Assembly: GCA_002415345.1 (NCBI GenBank)
Contig: DHXV01000002.1
Coordinates: 1-39,398 of the forward strand
From: Patescibacteria group bacterium UBA5147
Lineage (GTDB): Bacteria > Patescibacteriota > Saccharimonadia > UBA4664
Direction of reading: 5' to 3'
DNA: 39,398 nt
How positions within the stretch are numbered: the stretch's first letter is position 1; every line of letters starts with the position of its first letter. The translations under genes and the position numbers were made by a program. Shown here piece by piece: positions 3,669 through 33,112 of this stretch. The notes under the pieces are model-generated. The model was given only the letters and a program-made list of their open reading frames with translations, did no database searches and was not told the DNA's origin.

Positions 3669-3732
3669 TAACCATAACTATGGTTTTCTTCATGGCGCTA
3701 CCACGGTATAATCAAGCGGTTACCCCACGCAC

Positions 3733-3806
3733 GGCACCTTGGCGGAGTGGTTACGTAGCGGTCTGCAAAACCGTGTACACGGGTTCGAATCCCGTAGGTG
3801 CCTCCA
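3733..3806 (+). tRNA. tRNA-Cys (anticodon GCA), CCA encoded
   Basis: Acceptor GGCACCT/AGGTGCC, anticodon loop CTGCAAA, T-arm CGGGTTCGAATCCCG, then T + CCA. Confidence 0.88.
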
Positions 3807-3816
3807 GTTATAATTT

Positions 3817-3902
3817 GGGCGGGTGGTGGAATGGTATACACGGGGGACTTAAAATCCCCTGGCCTAACGGTCTTGCGGGTTCGATCCCCGCCCCGCCTAC
3901 CA
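3817..3902 (+). tRNA. tRNA-Leu (anticodon TAA), class II with long variable arm, CCA encoded
   Basis: Acceptor GGGCGGG/CCCGCCT, anticodon stem GGGGA/TCCCC with loop CTTAAAA, long variable arm TGGCCTAACGGTCTTGC, T-arm GCGGG-TTCGATC-CCCGC, then A + CCA. Confidence 0.88.
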
Positions 3903-5752: not shown

Positions 5753-6307
5753 ATGATTCCATATATTATTATCGCCGTAATCATCGTGCTAGGTTTTGCC
5801 ATCGTGGCGGTCTACAACGGACTGGTCACCTCGCGCGTTCGGGTCGATGAAGCCTGGAGCGATATCAACGTCCAGCTCAAGCGTCGTTATGACCTGATCC
5901 CTAACCTGGTGAACATCGTCAAAGGCTACGCCACGCACGAGAAGACCGTGTTCGAGGAAGTCACCAATGCCCGGACCGCGGCCATGAACGCTCCGACCAT
6001 CGCCGACAAGGCCGTGGCCGAGAACCAGCTGGCTGGCACCCTTAAAAGCCTGTTCGCCGTCGCCGAAGCCTACCCCGACCTTAAGGCCAGCGAGAACTTC
6101 AAGCAGCTCCAGGGTGAGCTCGTCGATACCGAAGACAAGATCCAGGCCTCACGCCGGTTCTACAACGGCAACGTCCGCGATTTCAATATCAAGCTGTCGG
6201 TTTTCCCGACCAACCTGTTTGCCAGCATGCTCGGCTTCACCGCTCGCGACTTCTTTGAAGCCGAGAACCAGGCCGAAGTCGAGAAGCCGGTCGACGTTAA
6301 GTTTTAG
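5753..6307 (+). CDS. lemA: LemA family membrane protein
   Basis: 184 aa. N-terminal TM, then [33 protein letters not shown], typical of LemA. Adjacent to htpX, a common pairing. Confidence 0.88.
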
Positions 6308-6316
6308 GAGCCTGTT

Positions 6317-6820
6317 ATGTCCCAAGCCGAATTCCGTAACAGCTACAGCTGGCAGGGCGCTCTAGCCCTGGGGCCCAAGTTGGTCAGCCTGGCCGAAGAC
6401 CTGCCGGCCCACGAGCAGACCGGGCTGGTAATGCAAATCTCCGGATTAATGATTGATCTCCCGGCTATGGTAGCCCATGACTTAGTGGACGGCACGGCTT
6501 TGCGGTTTGCCCCTTACTACCGCCTTACCGCCGCCTTGGAACTGATTGAGCGCGTCTACCCGGCCCTCGATGCCGGTGAAGCCAAGTCTGACCTCGAAAC
6601 ACTGGGCGTCCGCCTGGCATCCCCCTCATTTACGGAGCTGGTCCCGGCTCCCGTAGTCGCCCCGGTCGACGAGGACGAAACCTCGACCGAACCGGAATCA
6701 ACCGACCCGGCGGCCACCACCCTGGTGCCGCAACCAACCCCCGTCCCATCATATGAACCCTCAGCCACACCTCAGTCCGAACAGGTAACCTCAGTCCATG
6801 TACAGCCAGATAGCCTCTAA
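6317..6820 (+). CDS. Hypothetical protein; N-terminal part is faintly four-helix-bundle (23S rRNA IVS protein)-like, with a Pro/Thr-rich tail
   Basis: 167 aa. SD AGGAG 6 nt upstream. The pattern SWQGALALGPKLVSLAEDLPAHEQTGLVMQ resembles W-Q-A...P..E..L..Q of four-helix-bundle proteins. Overlaps the htpX start by 23 nt. Confidence 0.5.
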   Translation: MSQAEFRNSYSWQGALALGPKLVSLAEDLPAHEQTGLVMQISGLMIDLPAMVAHDLVDGTALRFAPYYRLTAALELIERVYPALDAGEAKSDLETLGVRLASPSFTELVPAPVVAPVDEDETSTEPESTDPAATTLVPQPTPVPSYEPSATPQSEQVTSVHVQPDSL

Positions 6821-14673: not shown

Positions 14674-15096
14674 ATGCTCAACCTTCTCATCCTCGAAGAC
14701 AACCTAGCCGTGCTTTCGGCGCTCATGACCGAGCTCGCCCTGCTTGAGCAAAAATTCAGGAATGGCCCCCAGCCTGGCCAAAATATCGCCGTGACCGTCT
14801 ACTCAACCTACACCGACGTCGAGCGCATCGTGAACTCCCAAGCCGCCAACCACTATGACGTAATCTTACTCGACCGGGACTGCAAGCTGGGCGGTTCGTT
14901 CCACGCCCTCGACATCGAGAAATTCGGCGCCGACAAGGTAATCGCCATTTCCATGGTTCCCGAATACAACCAAGAGGCCGCGGCCCGCGGAGTTACCCGC
15001 GTGGTTGATAAGGACTATCTCGATCTGCCCGGGTTCGCGTGGCAGGTAGGACAGCATATACGGGAAATGGTTCATGAATATCCAGCAGAAGTATAA
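14674..15096 (+). CDS. Stand-alone CheY-like receiver domain protein
   Basis: 140 aa. LLILEDN acidic pocket, VILLDRD candidate phospho-acceptor, later AIS and DK positions. No output domain and no kinase nearby. TACAAT lies 8 nt before the ATG, so the gene is likely leaderless. Confidence 0.6.
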   Translation: MLNLLILEDNLAVLSALMTELALLEQKFRNGPQPGQNIAVTVYSTYTDVERIVNSQAANHYDVILLDRDCKLGGSFHALDIEKFGADKVIAISMVPEYNQEAAARGVTRVVDKDYLDLPGFAWQVGQHIREMVHEYPAEV

Positions 15097-15116
15097 GTAT
15101 TGTCTCATCCAAACTG

Positions 15117-15146
15117 TTGCGGGAAGAAATATTTTTGGCGTACAAT
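15117..15146 (+). promoter_or_regulatory. Candidate promoter TTGCGG-18-TACAAT driving the riboswitch
   Basis: -35-like TTGCGG at 15117-15122 and -10 TACAAT at 15141-15146. The aptamer starts about 15-20 nt downstream. Confidence 0.5.
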
Positions 15147-15160
15147 GTAATTGTTAACAA

Positions 15161-15298
15161 CTTAGTATCAAGAGTGCAGCGAGAGTACTAGCTCAATGAC
15201 CTGCCGGCAACCTACCGCAAGATAAGGTGCTAAGCCTAGCCCGCAAGGGAAGGATGCAGACGTATAAATCCTTTCCTAAGCAGAAGGGATATTTTTAT
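15161..15298 (+). promoter_or_regulatory. SAM-I-type riboswitch: aptamer (15161-15260) plus antiterminator/terminator expression platform (15247-15298)
   Basis: Core read by eye: GTATC-AAGAG-TGCAGCGAGAG...AATGACCTGCC-GGCAACC...AAGGTGCTAA...CCC-GCAA-GGG...GATGC. Pseudoknot TAGC/GCTA. GGGAAGGAT (15247-55) is complementary to ATCCTTTCC (15268-76). Terminator stem 15268-75/15283-90 followed by ATTTTTAT. Confidence 0.8.
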
Positions 15299-15355
15299 GC
15301 AAAAATGATTGATTCCGAACAAAAACCGTACTAAGATAATTCCGTAAGTCGGTTC

Positions 15356-15384
15356 TTGAAACAAATAAACATAACAGGTATATT
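15356..15384 (+). promoter_or_regulatory. Candidate internal promoter TTGAAA-17-TATATT between the riboswitch terminator and dcm
   Basis: TTGAAA (15356-61), a 17-nt spacer, then TATATT (15379-84), 22 nt upstream of the dcm ATG. Confidence 0.45.
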
Positions 15385-15406
15385 ATATCTAACAAGTGGG
15401 GGCGAT

Positions 15407-16459
15407 ATGGGTTCAATAGCTGCAACATTGGTTGCCGATAATTTTAAAACAATGCTGGATGGCATTCAAAGACCGGAGGTTGGCTATAAGCCTCTGACCG
15501 CCGTCTCGCTTTTTAGTGGAGGGGGCGGTCTCGACCTTGGACTAGAAGCAGCAGGCTTTCATGTTGCGTACGCTTCAGATATAGAGCCTCCACATTGTTT
15601 AACACTTAGTGCCAACTTTCCTTCATGCTATGTAGAAGTTGCGGATGTAAATCAGCAAAAAGGAAGTGATATTATAGAGAAAGCCAATGTCGGTGAAATT
15701 GATCTACTTGCAGGCGGCCCACCCTGCCAATCCTTTAGTATCCTTGGAAAGCGCATGGCCTTAGATGATCCTCGAGGAAAACTGGTTTACGAGTATGCTC
15801 GCATCGTCAAAGAGCTTCGGCCTCGGGCATTCGTGTTCGAGAATGTTCCCGGCATACTAACTGTGAACAAGGGTATGGAGTGGAGGGCTCTGTTGGATTT
15901 TATGGCCGAGAGTACTGGGTACAAAATATACTATCAAGTTTTGAACTCCGTAAACTATGGAGCACCCCAAATTCGCAAACGAGTTTTTATGGTTGGATTC
16001 AGAGATCAGAATGAGTTTACGTTTCCTATGCCGACTCATGGACCGACTCAACTAGGGACTTTAAACAGCCTCATTCCCTGGGCAACCGCCAAAGAGGGTC
16101 TCGAAGGAGTTGAGGCCCTACATAATCATAGAATCCGCCCTCACGGTGAAAGAGTAAAGAGTCGATACATGACAGTAGAACCAGGAGGCCGCGATAAAAT
16201 AGATCACACTGATAGGCTGCATCCCGATCGGCCCTCGGGGACAGTTATTGTAGGGTCAAGAGGCGGTGGAGGGAGACCGTTTATCCATTTTTCCGCACCA
16301 AGACACCTCACTGTACGCGAAGCCGCTCGCCTTCAAACTTTTCCTGATTGGTTCAAATTCGAAAGTACAGAAACCTGGCAGTATAGAGCCGTTGGGAATG
16401 CTGTTCCTGTCTTTATGGCACGTGCAGTTGGCAAACAGATAGCTCTTGCCTTACAATAG
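15407..16459 (+). CDS. dcm: DNA (cytosine-5)-methyltransferase
   Basis: Motif I FSGGGGLDLG, motif IV GGPPCQSFS, motif VI ENV, motif VIII QIRKRVF, motif X GNAVPV. ATG at 15407 with SD-like GTGGGGG. The ORF-track TTG at 15356 lies inside a promoter-like element. Confidence 0.92.
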   Translation: MGSIAATLVADNFKTMLDGIQRPEVGYKPLTAVSLFSGGGGLDLGLEAAGFHVAYASDIEPPHCLTLSANFPSCYVEVADVNQQKGSDIIEKANVGEIDLLAGGPPCQSFSILGKRMALDDPRGKLVYEYARIVKELRPRAFVFENVPGILTVNKGMEWRALLDFMAESTGYKIYYQVLNSVNYGAPQIRKRVFMVGFRDQNEFTFPMPTHGPTQLGTLNSLIPWATAKEGLEGVEALHNHRIRPHGERVKSRYMTVEPGGRDKIDHTDRLHPDRPSGTVIVGSRGGGGRPFIHFSAPRHLTVREAARLQTFPDWFKFESTETWQYRAVGNAVPVFMARAVGKQIALALQ

Positions 16460-16464
16460 GACAA

Positions 16465-17949
16465 ATGCAACCTAATTACCCTTACGAAGGCTATTCGTGG
16501 TCGATGAATCAGCACATAGGACCAGCGACCGATAAATTAGTTATGCTCTCACTCCTGGAAGCCGCTCAGGAATTCGGTAGATCTAATAATCCTGGCGATA
16601 ACATCACAAAAGCGCTAGGTGAGCGCGGTATATTGACACCGAATATACGGGCAGATGCTGGAAAGGCGCAAACTTGGCGAGATTATCAGCAGGTGCTTTC
16701 TGAGCTAGGTCTAATATTCTCGACCAGGTTCACAGAGAATGTAGTCGTAACGCCCATGGGTCTAATGTGGCTAGATGGCATTCTGGGATTTTCAGAGTTG
16801 ATGGCCACTCAGGCATTTCGGTACCAGTATCCTAACGGACATAAACTCACAATCCCGCCTCGAACGCGAGGGGATCTGTCCTTAACGACGAGTATCCCAG
16901 AAACCCGAACTGAACTTGATGATATATCTGGCGTCGCAATTAAGCCTGCTGTACTTATTCTGAGGCTACTCCTAGAGGGCATGAAAGACTCTCTGTCATT
17001 GACAGTAGACCAATGTGTAGGAGCATTAATGCCATTGAAAAAAAATTCTGATTGGAGAGTAGCTCAATCAAATCTCGATGTAGTATTCGGTAAGTTGGAT
17101 CAAAACCGGCGCAGACATGTTCAAGAGTGGTATCGGCTACTTGCTCGGACTGGCATTTTTATTGCTACTTCGAGAGGAATTACATTAACTGAAAACGCTA
17201 AAGAGCTTAAGCTGGAGCTGGAGAGTCTTTGCGAATATCACGAAAATGTAGCAAATTTCTGGAAGCCTCAGTCCTATACCAGGCAGGATATGGCAGGCTC
17301 CTGGAGCAAATTTTATAGTAACCCAAATATTGACACACAATGGGCTGCCCCAGTTTCTGCGCTGACTCAAGAGTTCGTTGCTCAGAACTATCCTATGGGA
17401 ATCGATCTAGCCGACCAAACTGCACTACCAAACCAGGTTCGTAAATGGAGCGAAAATATCAGTCTCCGAGAAGTAAGAAGTAGCCCGATCGAGGTAACAG
17501 AATATGAACCAGGCCAAATAAACTTAGGAAATTTGGCGCTAGGCTATGAGAGACGACGGGAGATGACGTTGCTACACGACGTCGTTGTTTTGTCCGTTGC
17601 AAATAGGCTTAAAGATCAAGGATATGTAGTTCAGGAAGATCCATCATCGGTCGATATACTGGCAATAAAAAATGGTCATGAAATTATATTCGAGATAAAG
17701 ACCGTAAATATACGCTCATTGCCCGGGAGAATAAGACTAGGGGTAGGTCAGCTAAGCGAATATAGATATCGAAGAGAGCTGTCAACACATAACCGACCCA
17801 AAACGGGCTTAATTATCAGTGGAGTTGCTTCAATTCCCGAATGGGTAATTAGCTATTTTAATGATGAGCTAAACATGAGTCTCGTAGCCTATAACGGTGA
17901 TGGGGAGTTTGTAAAATATACTAGTATTGGCCTAGAATCATTATTTTAA
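16465..17949 (+). CDS. Putative type II restriction endonuclease (C-terminal PD-(D/E)XK core), cognate to the Dcm
   Basis: 494 aa, starting 5 nt after the dcm stop. C-terminal VDILAIKNGHEIIFEIKT fits a D...E-x-K nuclease motif. The N-terminal region vaguely recalls AlwI-family enzymes (unverified). Confidence 0.65.
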   Translation: MQPNYPYEGYSWSMNQHIGPATDKLVMLSLLEAAQEFGRSNNPGDNITKALGERGILTPNIRADAGKAQTWRDYQQVLSELGLIFSTRFTENVVVTPMGLMWLDGILGFSELMATQAFRYQYPNGHKLTIPPRTRGDLSLTTSIPETRTELDDISGVAIKPAVLILRLLLEGMKDSLSLTVDQCVGALMPLKKNSDWRVAQSNLDVVFGKLDQNRRRHVQEWYRLLARTGIFIATSRGITLTENAKELKLELESLCEYHENVANFWKPQSYTRQDMAGSWSKFYSNPNIDTQWAAPVSALTQEFVAQNYPMGIDLADQTALPNQVRKWSENISLREVRSSPIEVTEYEPGQINLGNLALGYERRREMTLLHDVVVLSVANRLKDQGYVVQEDPSSVDILAIKNGHEIIFEIKTVNIRSLPGRIRLGVGQLSEYRYRRELSTHNRPKTGLIISGVASIPEWVISYFNDELNMSLVAYNGDGEFVKYTSIGLESLF

Positions 17950-18014
17950 GAGACCAACACCCTCCCTTGAGGTAGAAAAAAACTATAGCAACACATCTCT
18001 CCAAATCCGACTAT

Positions 18015-19162
18015 ATGCTTGACCTCCGCCATCCAGCCTGGCTCTGGTTAAAGAAACACGACAAGACAAAACACCCGCCTGTTGATGACCGCACCCAGGC
18101 CATGTTCGATGCCGGCCACGATTTTGAGCCGTATGCGGAAACCCTCTTTCCCGGAGGAGAAACGCTTGGTTTTGCCGACTACAAAGAATACCTGAGCCTA
18201 CCGAAGCGAACTCAAGAGGCTCTGGACTCCGGCGTAATCACGATCTTTCAAGGCCGATTCGAATACGGGCAACTCACGTTTATCTGCGATGTTATAACCG
18301 TCGTTGGCGACAAAGAAATCGACCTGTACGAAATCAAATCTAGCACCAAAGCCAAGCCGGACCATGAGTTTGATTTGGCGTTTCAAATGGTGGTTCTTGA
18401 GGGCTGCGGATTCACGGTTCGTAATATTGCTGTCGTGCACGTCAATAATCAATATGTCCGCCATGGCGCCATTGATCCGGCCGAACTCACCACTATTACC
18501 GATATCACCGAGACAGTTAAGGCCTTGCGTGAGCAGACTTTGCAGCATGTGGAGGCTGCCCTGAAAGTGGCCGGCTCCCGAACCATTCCCGATATCTCGC
18601 CCTCTCTGGCGCGGCTTGGTTCGTTTAGTGATTGGGTAGGTATTTATCGCGGGCTTACAACCGTCGAACCGGAGAGTATTTATGACTTATGCTCGATCGG
18701 CGCGGAGGATACCGGCCAGTTGGAGGCGCTTGGCATTACCAGACTGGCTGATATTCCTGATGATTTTCCGCTCTCCTCCAAGCAGCAGCTTCAAGTTCAG
18801 GCCACCAAGCAGAACAAGGTTTTGATTCAGGCCGACAAGATTGCCAAGTACCTGGGCAGTTTTACCTATCCGCTGTATTTCTTTGACTACGAAACCATGT
18901 CGAGCCTGGTGCCGTACTTTGATGGCATGCGGCCGTATCAGCAGGTGCCGTTTCAGTACTCGCTGCATATCCTGGACGCCCCCGGCGCCGAGCTCAGACA
19001 CGTCGAATATCTCCACCGCGACAACTCCAACCCCGCCGAGCCATTGAGCCGGGCTTTGAAGTCCCACATTGGCGAGACGGGTTCGGTCATCACTTGGAAC
19101 ATGAGCTTTGAGATGGGCTGCAATACTACCCTAGGGCAGCTGGTTCCGGAATACGCCGAGTT
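18015..19162 (+). pseudogene. DUF2779-family (PD-(D/E)XK + RNase H-like exonuclease) gene, 5' part, interrupted by an IS
   Basis: LYEIKSSTK nuclease-like motif, YFFDYET and TWNMSFE exonuclease-like motifs. The native frame continues exactly at 21802 once the IS and one TSD copy are removed. The upstream in-frame LSKSDY lacks a canonical start. Confidence 0.8.
19155..19162. repeat. Target-site duplication GCCGAGTT (left copy)
   Basis: An identical 8-mer occurs at 21802-21809, immediately outside the two inverted repeats. Confidence 0.85.
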
Positions 19163-19174
19163 GGGACTTATCCC

Positions 19175-19203
19175 TTGACAACAAGTAGTTTATTTGATAC
19201 ACT
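19175..19203 (+). promoter_or_regulatory. Transposase promoter inside the left IR: TTGACA-17-TACACT, with the ATG 6 nt downstream (leaderless)
   Basis: TTGACA (19175-80), a 17-nt spacer, TACACT (19198-203), ATG at 19210. Confidence 0.6.
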
Positions 19204-19209
19204 TAGAGC

Positions 19210-20058
19210 ATGAAGTTCACCATGAAGCAGTTTAATGACCGTTTTCCTACCTCAGACGCTTGTCTAGAGGAGCTGAAGCAACTACGGTTCGCTGACTTCG
19301 CGTGTCCCAACTGTGACAGCTCGAAACTCTACAAAGTTAAAGGCCGTTCCATGTACGCCTCACCCTGCGGTTTCCAAGTGGCTCCCTTGTCTGGAACAAT
19401 CTTCCACAAGTCCTCAACCGATCTCCGCACTTGGTTTTTGACTATCTTCCTCATGACCACTACCCGTTCAGGCGTATCCGCTAAGACTGTGGAACGTATG
19501 ACAGGCGTGACTTATAAGACCGCTTGGCGCATGTGTAACCAAATCCGTACTCTCATGCAAGACGGTGGCGACCTCCTTACGGGCGTTGTAGAGGTCGATG
19601 AGACCTATTTCCAAGCTAACCCACGCAAGGACAGCCGATTGCCCAAGGGCAAGCGTACAGGCGAGGCTGGTATCGTTCTGGGAATGGCTGAAGTGGGCGG
19701 TCGGGTTCGGGTGCGCCGAGTACCTAATTCGGGGCTTGGTATGCTCGACCACGTTTACGAGAACGTCAGCAAGTCAGCTATTATCCACACGGACGGTTGG
19801 TTGGCTTACAAGAAGTTACCCAAAATGGGCTACACTCACGCAGTGGTTGACCACTCTATCGGCCAGCACGTTGTAGATGGTGTTGGGACGCAGAACATTG
19901 ACGGGTTTTGGAATAATCTGAAGCGTGGCGTTTATGGGGTGTACCGTCACTGTGAGCCGAAGTATCTTGAGAGCTATGCTAATGAGTATGCTTGGCGGTA
20001 TTCAAACTGTAATAGTGGAGTTCCGATGTTCGAGTTATTGCTGAGTAAAGTTGCTTAA
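19210..20058 (+). CDS. IS1595-family (ISXO2-like) DDE transposase with N-terminal zinc ribbon
   Basis: 282 aa. CPNC...C zinc-ribbon, then VEVDETYF and IHTDGWLAYK DDE-type motifs and ...NIDGFWNNLKRG...Y..EY.WRY, typical of IS1595 transposases. Confidence 0.88.
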   Translation: MKFTMKQFNDRFPTSDACLEELKQLRFADFACPNCDSSKLYKVKGRSMYASPCGFQVAPLSGTIFHKSSTDLRTWFLTIFLMTTTRSGVSAKTVERMTGVTYKTAWRMCNQIRTLMQDGGDLLTGVVEVDETYFQANPRKDSRLPKGKRTGEAGIVLGMAEVGGRVRVRRVPNSGLGMLDHVYENVSKSAIIHTDGWLAYKKLPKMGYTHAVVDHSIGQHVVDGVGTQNIDGFWNNLKRGVYGVYRHCEPKYLESYANEYAWRYSNCNSGVPMFELLLSKVA

Positions 20059-20242
20059 TCTGTTAAATGAGAGTACAAAGTAGTTATGAATAAGTTACTA
20101 CAGACCTAACTTCTGCAGGAACCTCTTTTGTGTTGCAATTGTTATACGTTTGTACTACAATTTAGTTACAAATGACTCGCTTTCCGAATTGTCACCGTAT
20201 GGTGTGCGTGTCTGGGACAACCAGACTAGGAGGCGGGTTTTT

Positions 20243-20863
20243 TTATTTGAAGTACCAAATATCTTCAATACGATCAGGGATTACTCCGAGATAATCACGT
20301 GAATCTGTCTTAGTCTGCGTAGTTCTGAAAATCGCTCCAGCTACCATGTCAGCCAATTGAATAAGATTATCGCTTTTAGAGTCAACAAACTTCATGTCTT
20401 TTATAACGCCGCCGCGGGGATTAGCTTGCTGACGGAAATAAGCAGCAGCAGTCTTTTTATACAACTTGTCACCATGTCCATCTAATCGAATACTAGCGTT
20501 TTTGATTTTTCCTGCATTGTTTGAAAGTACTTGTTTAATCATGTAATTATAAAACTTGTCTTGCTTACTTTGTAGCTCTGGACTCCTGATTATGGCTTTG
20601 TTTGCCACAATTGCTCGCACACGAAAATTGGAGGTTTTAACCACCTCAAGGAAATCTAGCCGAATTTTCTTAGTTGCTTTATTAAATTTGAATTCGTGTT
20701 CGTCACGCCAATTCAACGAGCGACGTAATCGTTTTATTTTGAGTGCCGTTTCTTCCGCATCTAAATTATCATCGAAAATTACGCAGGCGATTACAAAATG
20801 CGCACTCGATCCTTTATCCAATTTAAAACCAGCGTCTCCGGAATCATCTATAAAAACCAGCAT
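20243..20863 (-). CDS. DUF3800 domain protein (passenger gene)
   Basis: 206 aa. N-terminal MLVFIDDSGD, HEFKF, C-terminal LIQLADMVAGAI. These are the conserved blocks of DUF3800 as I recall them. Confidence 0.8.
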   Translation of the reverse strand: MLVFIDDSGDAGFKLDKGSSAHFVIACVIFDDNLDAEETALKIKRLRRSLNWRDEHEFKFNKATKKIRLDFLEVVKTSNFRVRAIVANKAIIRSPELQSKQDKFYNYMIKQVLSNNAGKIKNASIRLDGHGDKLYKKTAAAYFRQQANPRGGVIKDMKFVDSKSDNLIQLADMVAGAIFRTTQTKTDSRDYLGVIPDRIEDIWYFK

Positions 20864-21054
20864 TACCTTTTCGGCTGCGCCGCTCGCTTCAAAATCTCAT
20901 CAAACCGCTCTTGTCCTTGTGGGTGAGCCTCAAGCTGTGCTAGCTCCGCTTGTTCTTCTGGCGTAGGGTTACGCAACGCCTTCAAGTTAAGAATACGGTT
21001 AGCCGTCTTCTCTTCGGGGGTTTGCTCGCGTTTGGCATGATCGTGTTTATGCAT
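20863..21054 (-). CDS. Small charged hypothetical protein (63 aa), start-stop coupled to DUF3800
   Basis: ATG at 21054 is preceded by TATAAT 6 nt upstream on the minus strand. Its stop overlaps the DUF3800 ATG (ATGA at 20863). Lys/Glu/Pro-rich. Confidence 0.45.
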   Translation of the reverse strand: MHKHDHAKREQTPEEKTANRILNLKALRNPTPEEQAELAQLEAHPQGQERFDEILKRAAQPKR

Positions 21055-21061
21055 AGGACAA

Positions 21062-21475
21062 TTATACGCCCCAACTGATAAACAGCCACAGCTGGCTGGG
21101 GTGGGTTGCCCACCAGAAGCATTCCATCGAAAAGAGAAAGAAGAAAATACAAAGAACAAATGCCGCCGACTTATAATCGCGGTAATCCTTTGACCTAATA
21201 ATGTTATTAAGCGTTAGCACAAACAACATAAGTGAAGATATAAAGAACGTGCTGATACCTAAGATAAGCGAGAATTTAGTCACTTCTTGAAATATTTTTA
21301 CTTCTACGGACGTAAAAATAAGAAGCGCAGCAAACAGGCCAAAAATTCCTATAAATTCTTCCTTCACATGCTCTAACTTATCAACTTTATCGAGGAGATC
21401 ATCAATCTTGGCGGTGTCCTTAGGATCTCCGCCAAGATTGGGTTTATCGGTTGCCGTTATACCTTTTTGGCCCAT
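21062..21475 (-). CDS. Membrane protein (3-4 TM) with charged N-terminal cytoplasmic segment (passenger gene)
   Basis: 137 aa. The start overlaps the stop of the upstream 105-aa ORF (ATGA at 21475). Confidence 0.55.
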   Translation of the reverse strand: MGQKGITATDKPNLGGDPKDTAKIDDLLDKVDKLEHVKEEFIGIFGLFAALLIFTSVEVKIFQEVTKFSLILGISTFFISSLMLFVLTLNNIIRSKDYRDYKSAAFVLCIFFFLFSMECFWWATHPSQLWLFISWGV

Positions 21476-21789
21476 TATTCAAACTTCACTTTCGGCAGCA
21501 GGAAGATAACGTTAAAGTAAAAAACCTGACCAGAGGAATTGCCAACTATTGCAACTATGGGCATCATTGAACCCGACAGTGCTACACCCACACCAGGTCC
21601 AGTAGTATCTTGAAGAAACTGGTGGGTAAAACCCTGCATGAGGGTATAGCCAGCAGGGTCAACCGGAAAACCCTCCTTTGTAATCACGGCGTCGATAGCA
21701 GTTTTTATATCAGGCTCTAAGGACTTAAATGTATGCGTTGCCACTAGTCGTTTCCTTAACCAGTTGAGTATATCACAACTTGTCGTCAT
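21475..21789 (-). CDS. Hypothetical 105-aa protein (passenger gene), start inside the right IR
   Basis: The ORF-track version (to 21960) crosses the IS boundary into the DUF2779 antisense strand. The ATG at 21789 (MTTSCDIL...) is the first start inside the element. Confidence 0.45.
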   Translation of the reverse strand: MTTSCDILNWLRKRLVATHTFKSLEPDIKTAIDAVITKEGFPVDPAGYTLMQGFTHQFLQDTTGPGVGVALSGSMMPIVAIVGNSSGQVFYFNVIFLLPKVKFE

Positions 21790-21801
21790 GGTATAAGTCC
21801 C

Positions 21802-22137
21802 GCCGAGTTCTACGAACAACTCAATTCCCGCATTGTTGATTTGATGGTGCCGTTTGCCAGCGACTGGTACGTTGATAAAGACTTTGGCGGCAGCGCGTCC
21901 ATTAAGCATGTCCTGCCTGTGCTGGTGCCTGAGCTGTCCTACAAGGCGTTGGGCATTCAAGAGGGGACCGCCGCTTCAAGACTGTGGATGGAGGCCGTAC
22001 TGGACGGCAAGCGGGATGGTGAGCGGGAGCAGATTTTGAGTGATCTGGTTGAGTATTGCGGGTTGGATACGTTGGCGATGGTGGAGATATTTCGGGTATT
22101 ATCCCAGCTGGATACAAACAATGAAATTAGAAGCTAG
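21802..22137 (+). pseudogene. DUF2779-family gene, 3' part (resumes after the IS)
   Basis: Reads AEFYEQLNSRIVDLMVPFASDWYVDKDFGGSASIKHVLPVLVPE...YCGLDTLAMVEIF, in frame with 18015..19160. Restored length is about 491 aa. Confidence 0.8.
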
Positions 22138-28202: not shown

Positions 28203-28231
28203 TTGGCGGGACACGTACAAATCCGTATACT
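28203..28231 (+). promoter_or_regulatory. Promoter TTGGCG-17-TATACT for the gat operon, with the ATG 6 nt after the -10 (leaderless)
   Basis: TTGGCG 28203-08, TATACT 28226-31, gatC ATG at 28238. No SD. Confidence 0.55.
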
Positions 28232-28237
28232 AGGCCT

Positions 28238-28531
28238 ATGTCAAAGATCGATATTACCGAAGTTGAACGCATCGCCAAATTGGCGCGGCTGGGGCTGAGC
28301 GCCGAAGAATCCGCGCAGATGGCCGTGGAGCTGAGCCGGATCGTCGGCTTCGTGGAGCAATTGGCGACGGTGGACGTCGAGGGCGTTCCGCCGACCGACC
28401 AGGTGACGGGGCTGGTGGACGTGTGGCGCGCGGACGTGGTGACGCCGAGCATGCCGCGAGCCGAACTGCTGGCGAACGTTCCGGAGCAGAAAGACGGTTA
28501 TATCGTGGTGAAGCGGGTGCTGAATGGTTAA
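28238..28531 (+). CDS. gatC: Asp-tRNA(Asn)/Glu-tRNA(Gln) amidotransferase subunit C
   Basis: 97 aa. The motifs MSKIDITEVERIAKLARLGLSAEE...FVEQL...VD are canonical GatC. Confidence 0.92.
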   Translation: MSKIDITEVERIAKLARLGLSAEESAQMAVELSRIVGFVEQLATVDVEGVPPTDQVTGLVDVWRADVVTPSMPRAELLANVPEQKDGYIVVKRVLNG

Positions 28532-29966
28532 TCTGAAACGACCAATAAGCGAGCTGGCCGCCGAAGTGGCTGAGGGGAAACTTACCGCTGTTGAGTTGGT
28601 GACTGCGAGCCTGGAGCGGATTGCGGCGACCGAGGAATTTCATACCGTTCTTGAGGTTAGTGAGCTGGCGCAAGGTCGCGCCCGCGAGATTGATGCGCGG
28701 ATTGCCGCCGGGGAAACGGTCGGGGTGCTCGCGGGTATTCCGTTTATCGCCAAGGACAACTTCCTGACGCGCGGCACCCATACCACGGCCGGCAGTAATA
28801 TCCTGGCGCCGTTTAATGCGCCGTATCAGAGCGTGGCCGTTGACCGGCTGGAGGCGGCGGGCGCCGTCATGGTGGCCAAAGCCAACCTGGACGCCTTTGC
28901 CCACGGCAGTTCCACCGAGAACTCCGATTTCGGCCCGACCAAGAACCCGGTTAATCCGGAGTACGTGCCGGGCGGCAGTTCCGGTGGCAGCGCCGCCAGT
29001 GTGGCGCTGGGGCAGGCCTGTTTTGCCGTGGGCACCGATACGGGCGGCTCGATCCGCCTGCCGGCCAGCTACTGCGGCGTCGTCGGGCTCAAACCGACCT
29101 ACGGCCTGGTGCCGCGCACCGGCGTGGTCGCGATGGGCAGCTCCACCGACGTGATCGGACCATTAACCAACTCCGTGGTCGACGCCGCTCTGGTGCTCGA
29201 CGTCATGGCCGGCCGCGACGGCAGCGACGCGACTTCCATTGAACGCGACAGTGTCAGCTACGTGGTCGACGCCCAAAGCTTTAAAGGCAAGAAAATTGGT
29301 CTTATCAAGGAATATACGGGTGAGGGCGTCGATCCGGCTATCGCCGCGGCGATGGCCGCGACGGTCAAACGGCTGGAGGCGGCCGGGGCCACGGTCGAGA
29401 CGGTGAGCCTCCCGGCCACCGAGCTGGCACTGGCGTCCTACTACATTCTGGTGCCCGCCGAAGTCTCCAGCAATCTGGCCCGCTATGACGGCGTCAAGTT
29501 CGGTCATTCTTCACCCAAGGCCCGCGACCTGGAAGAAACCTATCGCCTCAGCCGCGAGGAAGGCTTTGGCGCCGAGGCCAAACGCCGCATCATGATCGGC
29601 ACCTACGTGCTGTCGAGCGGGTACTACGACGCCTACTACAAACGCGCCCAAAAAGTGCGCACCAAACTGGTCGACGAATTCAACCAGGCCTTTGCAACCT
29701 ATGATTTCCTGCTGGGGCCGACCGCCCCGACCGCTGCCTTTAAGCTGGGCCAGAACACCCATGACCCGCTCGCCATGTACCTAAACGACGTCATGACCGC
29801 GGCGGTCAACCTGGTGGGCTGCGCGGCGATCTCGCTGCCGCTGGGCGCAACGGCCGCATCTCTCCCGTTCGGTATCCAACTTATCGCTCCGCAGCGCGGT
29901 GAAGGCGCCTTGTTGGGGGCAGCCCAGGCTCTTGAGTCGCTGGTAGCTGGAGGGACGGCGGTATGA
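28524..29966 (+). CDS. gatA: Asp-tRNA(Asn)/Glu-tRNA(Gln) amidotransferase subunit A
   Basis: 480 aa. Amidase signature GGSSGGSAASVA...GTDTGGSIRLPA. Overlaps the gatC stop. Confidence 0.95.
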   Translation: MVNLKRPISELAAEVAEGKLTAVELVTASLERIAATEEFHTVLEVSELAQGRAREIDARIAAGETVGVLAGIPFIAKDNFLTRGTHTTAGSNILAPFNAPYQSVAVDRLEAAGAVMVAKANLDAFAHGSSTENSDFGPTKNPVNPEYVPGGSSGGSAASVALGQACFAVGTDTGGSIRLPASYCGVVGLKPTYGLVPRTGVVAMGSSTDVIGPLTNSVVDAALVLDVMAGRDGSDATSIERDSVSYVVDAQSFKGKKIGLIKEYTGEGVDPAIAAAMAATVKRLEAAGATVETVSLPATELALASYYILVPAEVSSNLARYDGVKFGHSSPKARDLEETYRLSREEGFGAEAKRRIMIGTYVLSSGYYDAYYKRAQKVRTKLVDEFNQAFATYDFLLGPTAPTAAFKLGQNTHDPLAMYLNDVMTAAVNLVGCAAISLPLGATAASLPFGIQLIAPQRGEGALLGAAQALESLVAGGTAV

Positions 29967-30415
29967 TCGGCTTCCTGGTAATTATCTTGATCGGCGGTTT
30001 GCTGCTGTTTGCCGTTATTGGTGGGGTGGGCCAGGGTTCGGGCGGTAAGAAGCGCGGGAGCCGGCGCGGCGGTAGTTCAAGCGGCGGCGCCAAGGTGAAT
30101 GTCGCGGATAAATGGGCGACGATCCAGACGATCTCCGCCGGTGGTCCCGCCGGCCTTAAGAACGCCGTCTCCGAGGCCGATAAGTTGTTCGACCACGCGT
30201 TAAGACAGCAGGGCTTCCCCGGCGAAACCATGGCCGACCGCCTCAAAGCCGCCAGATCCAGCTTTTCCAGCTACAGCTTTTATGACGGCATCTGGCGGGC
30301 CCATAAATTACGTAACGCCCTGGCCCACGAGGTGGGTTTTGACTTGGTCCCCAGCCAGGCCCGCGAGGCCCTGGGTGACTTTGAGCGCGGGCTTAAGGAC
30401 CTGGGCGCCCTATGA
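29963..30415 (+). CDS. Membrane-anchored protein with HEPN/DUF4145-like C-terminal helical domain (R-x4-H motif)
   Basis: 150 aa. N-terminal TM, a Gly/Ser/Arg linker (positive-inside), then a helical domain containing WRAHKLRNALAHE (R-N-x-x-x-H). ATGA overlap with the gatA stop. Confidence 0.6.
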   Translation: MIGFLVIILIGGLLLFAVIGGVGQGSGGKKRGSRRGGSSSGGAKVNVADKWATIQTISAGGPAGLKNAVSEADKLFDHALRQQGFPGETMADRLKAARSSFSSYSFYDGIWRAHKLRNALAHEVGFDLVPSQAREALGDFERGLKDLGAL

Positions 30416-30452
30416 TTAACCATTCCCCAGTAAGTTTAACGACGGAGGTTTT

Positions 30453-30884
30453 ATGACAGCATTCAAATCGTTCATCTCATACCGGCACAAAGGTGAAGAT
30501 CCGGCCAAGCTGCTTAAACTGCTGACGGCCGTGCGCGACGGCCTCAGCGAAGCCGGAGTCTCGGCCTACTGCACTTTCTTTGACGAGGACGCGTTTCAGG
30601 AGAAAGCCTTCGGTGCGCGCGACATTATGGACCACGCCTTCAAGAAAATAAACACCGTCGACGTGCTGTTCGTCATCCTGACTTCGGATGAGAAAAGCGA
30701 AGGCATGCTGATGGAAATCGGTTACGCCCTGGCTAAGAAGATTCCCATCGTCGTGGCCAGCAAAGATACGGTCAAAGCGTCCTCCGTTCCGCAAATGGGC
30801 ACCTATTCCATAGTTTGGTCCGATATCGCCGAGCTGACTCGCAAGATCGGTGAACTGCCGTTGGAAGTAGGCCAGCTTCGATGA
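30453..30884 (+). CDS. TIR-like / nucleoside 2-deoxyribosyltransferase-like (flavodoxin-fold) protein
   Basis: 143 aa. N-terminal FISYRH strand (TIR-like) and VDVLFVILTSDEKSEGMLMEIGYALAKKIPIVV (NDT-like D...S.G...E.GYA..K.P block). SD GGAGG. ATGA overlap with the gatB start. Confidence 0.6.
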   Translation: MTAFKSFISYRHKGEDPAKLLKLLTAVRDGLSEAGVSAYCTFFDEDAFQEKAFGARDIMDHAFKKINTVDVLFVILTSDEKSEGMLMEIGYALAKKIPIVVASKDTVKASSVPQMGTYSIVWSDIAELTRKIGELPLEVGQLR

Positions 30885-32380
30885 ATTCAGCCCTCCGCGA
30901 CAAATATGAAGTCGTTATCGGTATCGAATGCCACGTGCAGCTGGCCACCAAGACCAAGCTGTTCTGCGGCTGCGATAACGATTCCCGCGATTCTGAGCCC
31001 AACATTCATGTTTGTCAGGTGTGCCTGGGCTTGCCCGGAACCTTGCCGGTCTTGAACCAGCGGGCCGTGGAGCTGGCGCTGCGGCTGGGGCAGGTGCTCA
31101 ACGCCACTTATCCCGAGAATTATCACACTAAATTCGACCGTAAGAATTACTTTTATCCCGATTTGCCCAAGGGCTACCAGATTACGCAGTTCGACGAGCC
31201 GGTCGTGGGCCCGGGTTGGGTGGAATTTCCGCTGGACGGCGAGACCGTGCGCATCGGAATTACTCGCGCGCATTTGGAAGAGGATGCCGGTAAACTGACC
31301 CACCCTGAAGGCGCCGCGTACTCCCTGGTCGACCTCAACCGGGCCGGCACGCCGCTGCTGGAAATCGTCAGCGAACCGGACATCCGCAGTGCGGCGCAGG
31401 CTAAGGCCTACGCGCAGGAGCTCCACAATCTGGTGCGCTATGCCGGCGTGAGCGATGCCAACCTGTACTACGGGAACATGCGGTTCGACGTCAACGTCAG
31501 CGTGCGGCTGGTGGGGGCGACGGAGCTGGGGATTCGCTCGGAAACCAAGAATCTCAACAGCTTCAAGGCCATCGAACGCGTGGTCGAGTATGAAACCCGT
31601 CGGCAGATCGTTTTGGTGGACGGCGGCGAGCGCGTCAAGCAGGAAACCCGGGGCTGGAACGACGACAAGCAGGAAACCTACAGCATGCGCAGCAAGGAAG
31701 ACGCCGACGAGTACCGCTACTTCCCGGAGCCCGACCTGCCGCCCATGGTGATTACCCGTGCCATGGTGGCGCAGCAGAACGATGGTATGAAAGAGACACC
31801 GAATAGCCTTCGGATCAAGCTTAACGAGGCGGGCATGCCGTCTAATGAATCTGAGGTTTTAATCTCAGACCCTTCGGCTGCCCGTATCTGGGAAGAAGTA
31901 TTCAAACTCGAACCCAAATACGCCCGCTTTGCTTTTACCTGGCTAATAGGTGACGCCCTTAAACTTGCAGAGACATCGAAAATGTCATTGTCTGAATCTG
32001 GCATATCAGAGTCATCGTTGGCCTACGTGTCCACAATGGTTGGTGAGGGTAAACTTAGTTCGACAAACGGCAAGAATTTGTTGGCGGTACTATGGCAAGA
32101 GGGCATAGGCCTTGGAGCAAACAAACCAAGTTTAGAAGAGGGGTTAAAGAGAATTGAAGCCATCGCTGAAAAGCATGGACTATTGCAGCAGTCGGACGAA
32201 GGCGAACTGGCCAAAATCGTCGATGAGGTCATTGCCGCCAACACCCAGGCCGTGAAAGACTACAAAGCTGGCAACCAACGCGCCTTTGGCGCCCTGGTGG
32301 GCCAAGCCATGAAAGCTACGGCCGGCAAAGGCAACCCGCCAGTCATCAACAAACTGCTGCGCGAGCGACTGGACAGCTAG
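30881..32380 (+). CDS. gatB: Asp-tRNA(Asn)/Glu-tRNA(Gln) amidotransferase subunit B
   Basis: 499 aa. KYEVVIGIECHVQLATKTKLFC, RFDVNVS and the C-terminal YqeY-like tail are canonical GatB. Confidence 0.95.
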   Translation: MNSALRDKYEVVIGIECHVQLATKTKLFCGCDNDSRDSEPNIHVCQVCLGLPGTLPVLNQRAVELALRLGQVLNATYPENYHTKFDRKNYFYPDLPKGYQITQFDEPVVGPGWVEFPLDGETVRIGITRAHLEEDAGKLTHPEGAAYSLVDLNRAGTPLLEIVSEPDIRSAAQAKAYAQELHNLVRYAGVSDANLYYGNMRFDVNVSVRLVGATELGIRSETKNLNSFKAIERVVEYETRRQIVLVDGGERVKQETRGWNDDKQETYSMRSKEDADEYRYFPEPDLPPMVITRAMVAQQNDGMKETPNSLRIKLNEAGMPSNESEVLISDPSAARIWEEVFKLEPKYARFAFTWLIGDALKLAETSKMSLSESGISESSLAYVSTMVGEGKLSSTNGKNLLAVLWQEGIGLGANKPSLEEGLKRIEAIAEKHGLLQQSDEGELAKIVDEVIAANTQAVKDYKAGNQRAFGALVGQAMKATAGKGNPPVINKLLRERLDS

Positions 32381-32452: not shown

Positions 32453-33112
32453 ATGGCATCCCTTACCCTAGACCCCACTCAATATACCGACCCGATCATC
32501 ACCGTGGTCAATCAAATCCTCCCGAAGATCCCCGGATTGCTCTTTGGGCTGATTTTTGGCGTGCTGATTATTCGCCTGCTGGTTCGGCTGACGCGGCTGT
32601 TGCTGGCCTTCACCAGCATGCAACAAGGGCTCAAGGGCATTATCACGTCGGTGGTGGAGATCCTGTTATGGGTGCTTCTGTCGATTTCGACACTCCAGCA
32701 GCTGGGTTTCTCCGGCATGATCACCTTTTTCTCGAGCTCCGCGTTGGCAATCGGCATCATGCTGGCAGCCGGCGGATCAACGCTGTTGGCCGACATTGTC
32801 GCCGGAATCTTTCTGGCCCAGGATAACGACTTCGGCGTGGGCGACGAGGTGACGGCAGGAGAAAACGCCACCCACGGCATCGTCGAAAGCATGGACGCCC
32901 GCCGGACCCGTATCCGTGACGAGGCCGGCATACTGCACGTGCTGCCGAATTCGGTCGTTGAGCGCAAGGAATGGACTCTGATTCACAAGAGCGTAGCGCC
33001 CAACTCGCTGGTCAAAGCCGTGAAGACCGCCCGGAGGCTGCGGACGGCGTCATTTCCGAAGAAGCCGGGACGAGAGAAACGCGTCGTCACTTTTCGTGAT
33101 AATGAACTATAG
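32453..33112 (+). CDS. Small-conductance mechanosensitive channel (MscS family)
   Basis: 219 aa. 3 TM segments, then the beta domain GIFLAQDNDFGVGDEV...GIVESMDARRTRIRDEAGILHVLPNSVV. Confidence 0.8.
   Translation: MASLTLDPTQYTDPIITVVNQILPKIPGLLFGLIFGVLIIRLLVRLTRLLLAFTSMQQGLKGIITSVVEILLWVLLSISTLQQLGFSGMITFFSSSALAIGIMLAAGGSTLLADIVAGIFLAQDNDFGVGDEVTAGENATHGIVESMDARRTRIRDEAGILHVLPNSVVERKEWTLIHKSVAPNSLVKAVKTARRLRTASFPKKPGREKRVVTFRDNEL

Follow-up and report, generated by a model that had tools for sequence, protein, structure and literature searches.

The HEPN domains of prokaryotes have been met almost exclusively in toxin-antitoxin, abortive-infection, CRISPR and restriction-linked systems. The domain is defined by an Rx4-6H motif at the end of helix 3, in which a polar residue (N, D or H) directly follows the arginine, by an acidic residue in helix 2 and by an insert between helices 2 and 3 (PMC3710099). 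Non-catalytic HEPN domains usually lose the motif, and its retention predicts ribonuclease (RNase) activity (PMC3710099). The protein considered here differs from the systems in which such domains are usually met. It is encoded by ORF150, one of two open reading frames (ORFs) in a gatC-gatA-ORF150-ORF143-gatB arrangement on a stretch of DNA from the Patescibacteria group bacterium UBA5147 (contig DHXV01000002.1), which is 39,398 nt long and is called the window below. ORF150 combines an intact active-site motif with vertical inheritance and a core, lineage-enriched flag, and its positional counterpart in Southlakia shows depletion of an essential-like kind in transposon data. An earlier note on this DNA, made from the letters alone, had described ORF150 and ORF143 as a two-gene insert in the gatCAB operon. 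The overall picture that we have reached is of a housekeeping membrane HEPN protein (ORF150) beside an unrelated enzyme of the NDT/DNPH1 type (ORF143), and we put its probability at about 0.6. The interesting object is ORF150, and for another reason than the one that the note proposed.

ORF150 has a predicted membrane anchor and HEPN fold

An AlphaFold2 model of ORF150, built from a 30-sequence alignment, had a helix near its N terminus (residues 2-20), then a linker that is basic and disordered (residues 23-42), where the predicted local distance difference test (pLDDT) score was below 50, and a C-terminal domain, most of which had a pLDDT above 93. The helices of the domain spanned residues 47-58, 62-83, 104-122 and 130-147, with a short insert helix at residues 90-96. 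When the model was compared with the PDB using Foldseek, the top 18 matches were all HEPN proteins (probability 0.82-1.0); these included the HepT toxins 7bxo, 6m6w and 7ae6, and also 1wty, 2hsb, 2q00 and 1ufb, with target-normalised TM-scores mostly in the range 0.5-0.6. The same comparison against viral structures (BFVD) gave no informative match. The landmarks that define the domain were found at the corresponding places in the model, with R117-N118-x3-H122 closing the helix 104-122, the invariant D73 and the nearly invariant E71 and D77 lying in the helix 62-83, and residues 84-103 forming the insert between helices 2 and 3. Across more than 50 diverse family sequences R117, N118 and H122 were 100% invariant (alignments A1, A3 and A4), and these three residues, together with D73, W51, G87, R93, L94, W111 and H114, remained invariant down to about 30% identity. 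The HEPN call that the earlier note had made for ORF150 is thus upheld by fold, motif position and invariant residues, whereas sequence models gave it no support. The profile and structure searches that the note had suggested were divided in the same way, Foldseek returning the 18 HEPN matches and Pfam returning nothing from the HEPN clan or DUF4145 at E ≤ 10.

No model of Pfam, NCBIfam or PADLOC identified ORF150, and the sole Pfam match that is possibly related to HEPN was that of 1 of 30 family members to Hypoth_Ymh (E 0.15). Residues 86-129 of ORF150, which span the RNxxxH motif, showed a weak PADLOC match to the Type II methyltransferase model MTase_II (PDLC03260; E 0.009); this may perhaps reflect an HEPN/DUF4145-like domain within that model.

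A strong N-terminal transmembrane segment was present in 43 of 53 family members, and the other 10 had a weaker, amphipathic N-terminal segment rich in Trp and Arg/Lys. In ORF150 itself the segment has a Kyte-Doolittle 19-residue mean of 3.05, with a net charge of 0 before it and +5 in the 20 residues that follow; members from the Saccharimonadia likewise have a net charge of +3 to +8 in the 20 residues after the helix and none before. As the charge stands only after the transmembrane helix, an N-out, C-in topology is predicted, which would place the HEPN domain in the cytoplasm. The linker was variable and positively charged in alignments A1 and A3. Both the N-terminal hydrophobic helix and the basic Gly/Ser linker that the earlier note had described are present.

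ORF150 is an ancestral member of the gat operon

At least 560 homologues of ORF150 were found in a protein database clustered at 90% identity. In an exhaustive HMMER search, the family comprised 2732 clusters at 50% identity with E ≤ 1e-3, 1781 of them with E ≤ 1e-10, and lengths among the matches listed ranged from 83 to 194 aa. A scan of the GTDB species-representative genomes with the family alignment gave at least 478 relatives, and among the matches listed nearly all were labelled Saccharimonadia, Saccharibacteria or other Patescibacteria. Relatives were absent from 72,556 plasmids and 50,697 phage records.

Gene order was surveyed starting from ORF150, with 80 genome loci fetched and gene junctions measured over 82 loci. 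The ORF150 gene was downstream of gatA and on the same strand in every fetched locus in which gatA was in view, and gatB came after it in all surveyed loci with enough downstream sequence. In 49 of the 82 loci the gatA stop overlapped the start of the ORF150-family gene, and in 62 the two were at most 30 nt apart; a gene for a membrane-anchored cyclophilin lay between them in 13. On the other side, gatB was at most 30 nt downstream of the ORF150-family gene in 40 of 63 loci. A more distant sample consisted of 7 members, 25-40% identical to ORF150, from long contigs labelled 'Patescibacteria group'. All 7 followed gatC-gatA, either directly or behind the cyclophilin gene: in 4 the cyclophilin gene was followed by the HEPN gene, with gatB downstream directly or after one or two genes, and in 3 the HEPN gene came directly after gatA and was followed by lgt-trxB-dsbA in place of gatB.

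Because this survey was conditioned on ORF150, a control survey was made that started from gatA, using metagenome loci with enough downstream sequence. Where gatA was at least 54% identical to that of the window, an ORF150-family gene came directly after it in all loci (22/22); for more distant gatA genes this was so in only 3 of 40, and in 22 of the 37 loci without an ORF150-family gene gatB directly adjoined gatA. Identity to the window was correlated between the ORF150 family and gatA (Spearman rho 0.79) and between the ORF150 family and gatB (rho 0.74). Mean identities were 52% for the ORF150 family, 57% for gatA and 52% for gatB, and by this comparison ORF150 evolves as slowly as GatA and GatB.

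In none of the annotated loci was a nucleotidyltransferase (MNT) or other antitoxin-like gene found beside the ORF150-family gene, whose neighbours there were gatA, the cyclophilin gene, gatB, lgt or genes for small hydrolases. ORF150 is an ancestral, vertically inherited, lineage-wide member of the operon and not an insert. The two-gene insert of the earlier note does not hold, since ORF150 is ancestral and lineage-wide whereas none of the 80 surveyed loci had ORF143, the more distant homologues of which are in unrelated contexts. The note had also proposed a survey of what lies between gatA and gatB in related genomes, and the outcome was that ORF150 is kept after gatA across relatives and that ORF143 is not its constant companion.

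The apparent counterpart of ORF150 in Southlakia scores as essential-like

The gene SEML1_0535 of Southlakia epibionticum is a 420-bp 'hypothetical protein' gene that overlaps gatA (SEML1_0536) by 4 nt on one side and has gatB (SEML1_0534) on the other (Wang et al. 2023, Cell; PMC10633639). In Table S1 of that study it is marked both as 'core family' and as 'Patescibacteria enriched', and in transposon sequencing (Tn-seq) it was called GD/GD/ES, for growth defect twice and then essential. Eight insertions were present in the input DNA, and over T0-T2 insertions went from 5 to 3 to 1 and normalised reads from 127 to 5.9 to 2.8 (PMC10633639, Table S1). The protein has the ProtNLM label 'DUF4145 domain-containing' and was assigned by DPAM to ECOD e1wtyA1 (PMC10633639, Tables S1 and S2). 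SEML1_0535 is not named in the main text of PMC10633639 and figures in its supplementary tables only, and in the literature we found no paper that ties HEPN to GatCAB or to Patescibacteria in its text. The apparent Southlakia counterpart of ORF150 scores as essential-like in published Tn-seq data.

ORF143 is a divergent member of the NDT/DNPH1 superfamily

ORF143 matched PF05014 (Nuc_deoxyrib_tr) with 37.2 bits against a cutoff of 28.8, and all 25 of its homologues in the 90%-identity protein database carried the same family. Its model (pLDDT 90) has a flavodoxin-like fold, and in the PDB Foldseek matched it to nucleoside deoxyribosyltransferases (NDTs), DNPH1/Rcl and the CMP N-glycosidase BcmB, with E-values of about 3e-5 to 1e-3 and query-normalised TM-scores of 0.6-0.7 to NDT, DNPH1 and BcmB. 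An ORF143-family profile run against the PDB matched the Chroococcidiopsis NDT (CtNDT), with E88 of ORF143 aligned to the nucleophile E88 of that enzyme, which is the residue mutated in entries 8pqs and 8pqq. E88 was nearly invariant in the ORF143 family, with Gln in one member, and S82, six residues before it, was invariant (alignment A2). In human DNPH1 the serine that binds the 5'-phosphate, S98, is likewise six residues before the nucleophile E104 (PMC10603095). The S82-E88 arrangement, a match by spacing, is a lead that the substrate of ORF143 may be a nucleotide.

The earlier note had called ORF143 'TIR/NDT-like'. The NDT half of this description stands, on the PF05014 match, the Foldseek matches and the E88 alignment, but the TIR half does not: no Pfam TIR family matched ORF143 at E ≤ 10 and no TIR protein was among the top 50 Foldseek matches in the PDB, and on these grounds we rejected the TIR reading. 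The matches to ThsB/TIR models of PADLOC were weak (E 0.007-0.04). What the note had offered as a mundane alternative, a nucleoside or nucleotide enzyme, suits ORF143.

In the close relatives L083 and L093 ORF143 occupies the same slot as in the window, and the HEPN protein there is 78-81% identical. Homologues of ORF143 at 39-53% identity were found elsewhere, one by genes for a PNPOx protein and an adenine glycosylase, one by MazG and one among unannotated genes, and no ORF150 relative was nearby. The composition of the region was inspected for a recent transfer of ORF143; GC content was 0.54 in ORF143, 0.62-0.64 in gatA and ORF150 and 0.565 in gatB, and GC content at third codon positions (GC3) was similar throughout. 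ORF143 is a narrow-clade cargo gene, a divergent new member of the NDT/DNPH1 superfamily and by itself ordinary, and it is not a partner of ORF150.

The slot behind the HEPN gene and its recurrent neighbours

In sister lineages the slot between the HEPN gene and gatB held genes for NUDIX, HAD, HD, histidine phosphatase, PNPOx-like and RibD_C/DHFR-like proteins, often with overlapping stops and starts. In view of this variety of small genes, ORF143 is one of many small nucleotide or metabolite enzymes whose genes have come to rest in this slot, which is permissive and co-transcribed.

Two further cargo families were noticed there. A recurrent domain without a Pfam match, about 185 aa long and in some cases fused to NUDIX, follows the HEPN gene at L012:5444-6010, L011:5846-6484, L009:5444-6460 and L002:5605-6765. 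Its two HxT/S-like motifs (HC[TS][IL] and H[VI][TAS]L) recall those of 2H phosphoesterases; this assignment, an unconfirmed lead, found no support in Pfam (E ≤ 10) or in a PDB profile search. Such an enzyme, if real, would fit, because 2H phosphoesterases act on 2',3'-cyclic phosphates and HEPN RNases leave ends of this kind. The second family, also unannotated and of about 135-165 aa, has a SHOCT-like C-terminal tail and no significant Pfam match, and occupies the slot between the HEPN gene and gatB at L074:1072-1569, L038:5482-5889 and, in tandem, L075:5479-5949 and 6041-6526.

On the gatA side, a cyclophilin-type peptidyl-prolyl isomerase (PPIase) of about 210-275 aa was encoded between gatA and the HEPN gene in L028, L036, L037, L038, L044, L072, L075, L086, L087, L090 and L092. 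From its N-terminal basic segment and transmembrane helix, it is predicted to face outward. In L038 (Howlettbacteria) a gene for a 23S rRNA-intervening-sequence protein (3511-3870; PF05635, E 1e-33) lies between gatA and the cyclophilin gene. What comes after the HEPN gene in L088, L089 and L091 is not gatB but lgt, a thioredoxin-reductase-like gene and dsbA genes. The recurrent neighbours of the HEPN gene are genes of envelope-protein maturation.

Proposed function and alternative explanations

We start from what was observed of ORF150, namely its fold, its motif, its predicted topology, its phyletic pattern and its synteny. In the explanation that we favour, ORF150 would be a small protein specific to the Candidate Phyla Radiation (CPR), in which an N-terminal membrane anchor is followed by a disordered basic linker and, in the cytoplasm, by a four-helix HEPN domain. 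This domain would retain an RNase-type centre made up of R117, N118 and H122 where helix 3 ends and of D73 in helix 2, with the further invariant residues W111 and H114. Since the gene lies directly behind gatA, mostly with a stop/start overlap, the protein would be made from the same mRNA as GatCA. It could then act at the inner face of the membrane as a metal-independent endoribonuclease or as an RNA-binding module with a housekeeping role; a housekeeping membrane-tethered RNase or RNA-binding protein is, from motif and model, what ORF150 most likely is, and the RNase part of this follows from the retained Rx4-6H motif by the rule given in PMC3710099. ORF143, which has a putative Glu nucleophile and a DNPH1-like Ser, would most likely hydrolyse or transfer the base of a nucleoside or nucleotide, in salvage or in sanitation of the pool.

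Several points weigh against this picture. For ORF150, both the RNase activity and its substrate, whether tRNA, mRNA or another, are what we infer from sequence and model. The E-values of its Foldseek matches were modest (0.02-0.6), and the structural likeness to HEPN proteins consists of Foldseek scores, of which a superposition of the motif forms no part. No Pfam model of the HEPN/KNTase_C clan matched any of 30 diverse family members at E ≤ 10, and a profile of the ORF150 family run against PDB sequences found no HEPN protein and nothing relevant. SEML1_0535 is paired with ORF150 by position, size and annotation only, and its depletion in Tn-seq may come from polarity on gatB, which is essential. 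The conserved block around ORF150 also holds unrelated genes (ligA, the gene for the cyclophilin, which is of a secreted type, mscS, htrA, lgt and dsbA), so that adjacency to gatA is no proof of a functional link and historical synteny is still a live explanation. For ORF143, the general-acid Asp (D62 in CtNDT, D80 in DNPH1 and D72 in the Lactobacillus leichmannii enzyme; CtNDT position 62 is N in entry 8pqp and D in other entries) aligns to a nearly invariant Ala62, and the N-terminal catalytic Tyr is uncertain, the candidates being F7 and Y10. The chemistry of ORF143 may consequently differ from that of the known members.

ORF150 might instead be a dedicated fourth component of the GatCAB pathway, which would bind or cleave tRNA (for example by monitoring Glu-tRNAGln or Asp-tRNAAsn) or anchor the transamidosome to the membrane, and which translational coupling would keep in a fixed ratio with GatA. 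To our knowledge, GatCAB functions without such a partner in all bacteria that have been studied, and this counts against the idea. The presence of the ORF150 gene behind gatA in every surveyed locus, over very deep divergence and even where no gatB adjoins, speaks for it, as do the stop/start overlaps that are the rule at the gatA junction, the co-divergence of ORF150 with gatA and gatB, the resemblance of the Tn-seq profile of SEML1_0535 to those of gatA and gatB and the fact that the HEPN nucleases PrrC and RloC are tRNA anticodon nucleases (PMC3710099). Judged from gene order, however, the link of ORF150 to tRNA or GatCAB would be one of co-expression; the membrane-anchored cyclophilin gene intervenes in the 13 loci mentioned above, and the wider block (ligA-gatCA-...-mscS-htrA, or lgt-trxB-dsbA) is of mixed functions, so that the synteny may be historical. 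We regard a dedicated GatCAB component as unlikely, although with some real chance of being correct, and the earlier suggestion of a lineage-specific accessory to the transamidosome may hold for ORF150 alone. A bolder form, in which ORF150 would be the first housekeeping, essential bacterial HEPN ribonuclease, an obligatory fourth partner of GatCAB, tethered to the membrane, throughout the Patescibacteria superphylum, and would act on tRNA, for example by monitoring or processing mischarged Glu-tRNAGln or Asp-tRNAAsn or by coupling transamidation to the membrane, strikes us as rather unlikely.

It is also quite unlikely that ORF150 is a catalytically inert adaptor, a small membrane scaffold or regulator with an HEPN fold, in which the conserved residues would serve to bind some ligand or protein and not to cleave RNA. 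Several HEPN families are indeed non-catalytic binders (the substrate-binding domains of NTases, sacsin; PMC3710099), ORF150 is very small, and its invariant W51, W111, H114, G87, R93 and L94 are outside the classic catalytic positions of the domain; but non-catalytic HEPN domains are typically without Rx4-6H (PMC3710099), and here the R, N and H of the motif never vary among more than 50 sequences. Far less probable again is a toxin-regulator or defence pair, with an HEPN RNase and a TIR/NDT-like signalling enzyme inserted in gatCAB, as the earlier note had suspected. Conflict systems do repeatedly bring HEPN, TIR and NDT domains together (PMC3710099) and ORF143 has its weak ThsB-like matches in PADLOC, but the two genes occur together in one narrow clade only (the window, L083 and L093), homologues of ORF143 sit without an ORF150 relative nearby, and neither Pfam nor the fold search made ORF143 a TIR protein. 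ORF150, for its part, is vertical, single-copy per locus, slow-evolving, flagged as a core family and not found on phages or plasmids. The phyletic data and the want of plasmid or phage relatives led us to reject such a pair, and the toxin-regulator claim falls with the ancestral position of ORF150 in the operon and the unrelated neighbourhoods of ORF143 homologues.

Organisation of the locus and other features of the window

The positions of the genes and of the elements within them are collected in Table 1. ORF150 and ORF143 are genuine genes and not chance ORFs, because both have homologues in the numbers given above. The arrangement of gatA, ORF150, ORF143 and gatB that the earlier note had described, with ATGA overlaps at both ends, was found exactly as described, and each peptide motif that it had quoted (WRAHKLRNALAHE, FISYRH and SEGMLMEIGYALAKKIPIVV) is present in the sequence. 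At the first overlap, the TGA that stops gatA is part of the same ATGA that opens ORF150. GatC was assigned through the syntenic genes of L083 and L093, which are of 97 aa and carry PF02686 (GatC), and GatA through PF01425 on the syntenic gene of L083 and 45-77% identity to the gatA genes of the surveyed loci.

Table 1. Features of the gat region, in window coordinates.
Feature	Positions	Strand	Description and basis
gatC	28239..28531	+	97 aa from ATG 28239; mechanical ORF from GTG 28199; ORF list
gatA	28524..29966	+	480 aa, amidase; stop overlaps ORF150 start (ATGA 29963-29966)
ORF150	29963..30415	+	150 aa; belongs to a family of membrane-anchored HEPN-fold proteins that is Patescibacteria-wide; homologues, synteny, AlphaFold2, Foldseek
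ORF150, N-terminal transmembrane helix	29966..30028	+	about residues 2-22; model helix 2-20, Kyte-Doolittle
ORF150, basic Gly/Ser/Arg/Lys-rich disordered linker	30029..30100	+	about residues 23-46; pLDDT <50 at 23-42
ORF150, cytoplasmic HEPN-fold domain (predicted)	30101..30412	+	residues 47-150; AlphaFold2 model, Foldseek
ORF150, Rx4H motif R117-N118-A-L-A-H122	30311..30328	+	end of helix 3; sequence, invariant alignment columns
Spacer with GGAGG Shine-Dalgarno sequence	30416..30452	+	37 nt; GGAGG 8 nt before ORF143 start
ORF143	30453..30884	+	143 aa, NDT/DNPH1-superfamily enzyme; stop overlaps gatB start (ATGA 30881-30884)
ORF143, codon for E88	30714..30716	+	predicted catalytic nucleophile; aligns to Chroococcidiopsis NDT E88; alignment A2
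gatB	30881..32380	+	499 aa; syntenic genes carry PF02934 and PF02637
MscS-like channel gene	32453..33112	+	PF00924; part of the wider conserved gene order, most surveyed loci having it downstream of gatB

At 28203-28239 of the window there is a sigma-70-like promoter match (TTGGCG, a 17-nt spacer and TATACT), which stops 7 nt short of the probable gatC ATG (28239); this position would imply a leaderless gatC mRNA or one with a very short leader, the match being one to the consensus only. Scans of the operon region for promoters and terminators gave sites no more numerous than in shuffled sequence, and an Rfam scan found no RNA element inside the operon or near it.

Away from the gat genes, the Rfam scan of the window found a SAM-I riboswitch aptamer (S-adenosylmethionine (SAM); RF00162) at 15162-15260 (+), with 50.4 bits against a gathering score of 44.4 and an E-value of 8e-9. 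It is about 95 nt upstream of a gene for a C-5 cytosine DNA methyltransferase at 15356-16459 (+) (PF00145, E 1e-70). SAM riboswitches normally govern genes for the synthesis or transport of Met or SAM, and the place of this one before a DNA methylase gene is for that reason unusual. From about 15000 to 22000 the GC content falls to 0.40-0.48, compared with about 0.55-0.60 in the rest of the window. This low-GC island holds genes for the C5 methylase, a 494-aa protein without a Pfam match, a DUF2779/Cas4-like protein, an IS1595-family transposase and a DUF3800 protein, and has the look of a mobile or restriction-modification island, in which the 494-aa protein is possibly the cognate nuclease. 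A DUF3800-IX RNA motif (RF02968, 69 bits) at 20174-20243 (+) abuts the 3' end of the DUF3800 gene at 20243-20863 (-), on the opposite strand.

Significance and comparison with known systems

ORF150 is a concrete candidate among the 'Patescibacteria-enriched essential unknowns', and it raises the possibility of a membrane-linked step of RNA processing or tRNA handling that is peculiar to these ultrasmall bacteria. Were it to prove a ribonuclease partner of GatCAB, a domain of the conflict type would have been co-opted into core translation. The question is directly approachable, as genetic tools already exist for Southlakia, the one genetically tractable Saccharibacterium.

The best structural matches of ORF150 are the HepT/DUF86 toxins of MNT-HEPN (type VII) systems (Shewanella SO_3166, 7bxo/6m6u; Aphanizomenon HEPN, 7ae6), with a probability of 1.0 and target-normalised TM-scores of 0.54-0.58. 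In both HepT and ORF150 the third core helix ends in the motif layout L-R-N-x3-H-[D/E] and one final helix comes after it, and KLRNALAHEV of ORF150 parallels GLRNIAVHDY of the Shewanella HepT, with Val in ORF150 where HepT has the Tyr that is AMPylated (RX4HXY). Unlike HepT, which is sporadic and mobile, ORF150 is vertical and lineage-wide; it has an N-terminal membrane anchor and no adjacent MNT nucleotidyltransferase, and no Pfam DUF86 match.

The closest described architecture is that of the single-transmembrane subgroup of DUF4145 (PF13643). Proteins of this family resemble ORF150 in having a small HEPN domain with an RN...H motif, and some members have a single transmembrane segment with the HEPN domain predicted to be cytoplasmic (PMC3710099, section 15). 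However, PF13643 matched none of 30 ORF150-family members at E ≤ 10, and the transmembrane segment of ORF150, MIGFLVIILIGGLLLFAVIGG, is without the 'WP' signature of the transmembrane DUF4145 proteins. DUF4145 proteins are moreover tied to restriction-modification, abortive infection and defence, whereas ORF150 is tied to a core translation operon. With no Pfam HEPN match, no MNT partner, no AMPylated Tyr and no WP signature, we have filed ORF150 as a new HEPN family in a housekeeping, operon-locked context.

As a functional analogy only, ORF150 resembles the eukaryotic Ire1 (KEN/HEPN) and C6orf70 and the bacterial RNase Y in layout: a single membrane anchor is joined through a flexible linker to an endoribonuclease domain in the cytoplasm, a putative one in ORF150. 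RNase Y works through KH and HD domains. Ire1 and C6orf70 have an active site of the HEPN type (PMC3710099), but ORF150, unlike proteins of the Ire1 type, has neither a sensor or lumenal domain nor a kinase domain.

ORF143 is like the NDTs (PF05014; that of Lactobacillus leichmannii and that of Chroococcidiopsis, 8pqp) in its fold and in its Glu nucleophile within an M-E-[IL]-G motif, and the Ser six residues ahead of the Glu may, by its spacing, correspond to that of DNPH1/Rcl (S98/E104 against S82/E88); BcmB and MilB are related N-glycosidases. Its N-terminal strand reads F-I-S-Y-R, in contrast to Y-F-A-G or Y-F-C-G-S-I-R in enzymes of the NDT/DNPH1 type.

The operon itself can be compared with other interrupted gatCAB operons, such as that of Mycobacterium tuberculosis, in which we take pfkA to lie between gatA and gatB. 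There, as here, a non-Gat gene is found inside the cluster, but here the intervening gene is lineage-defining, superphylum-wide and translationally coupled to gatA.

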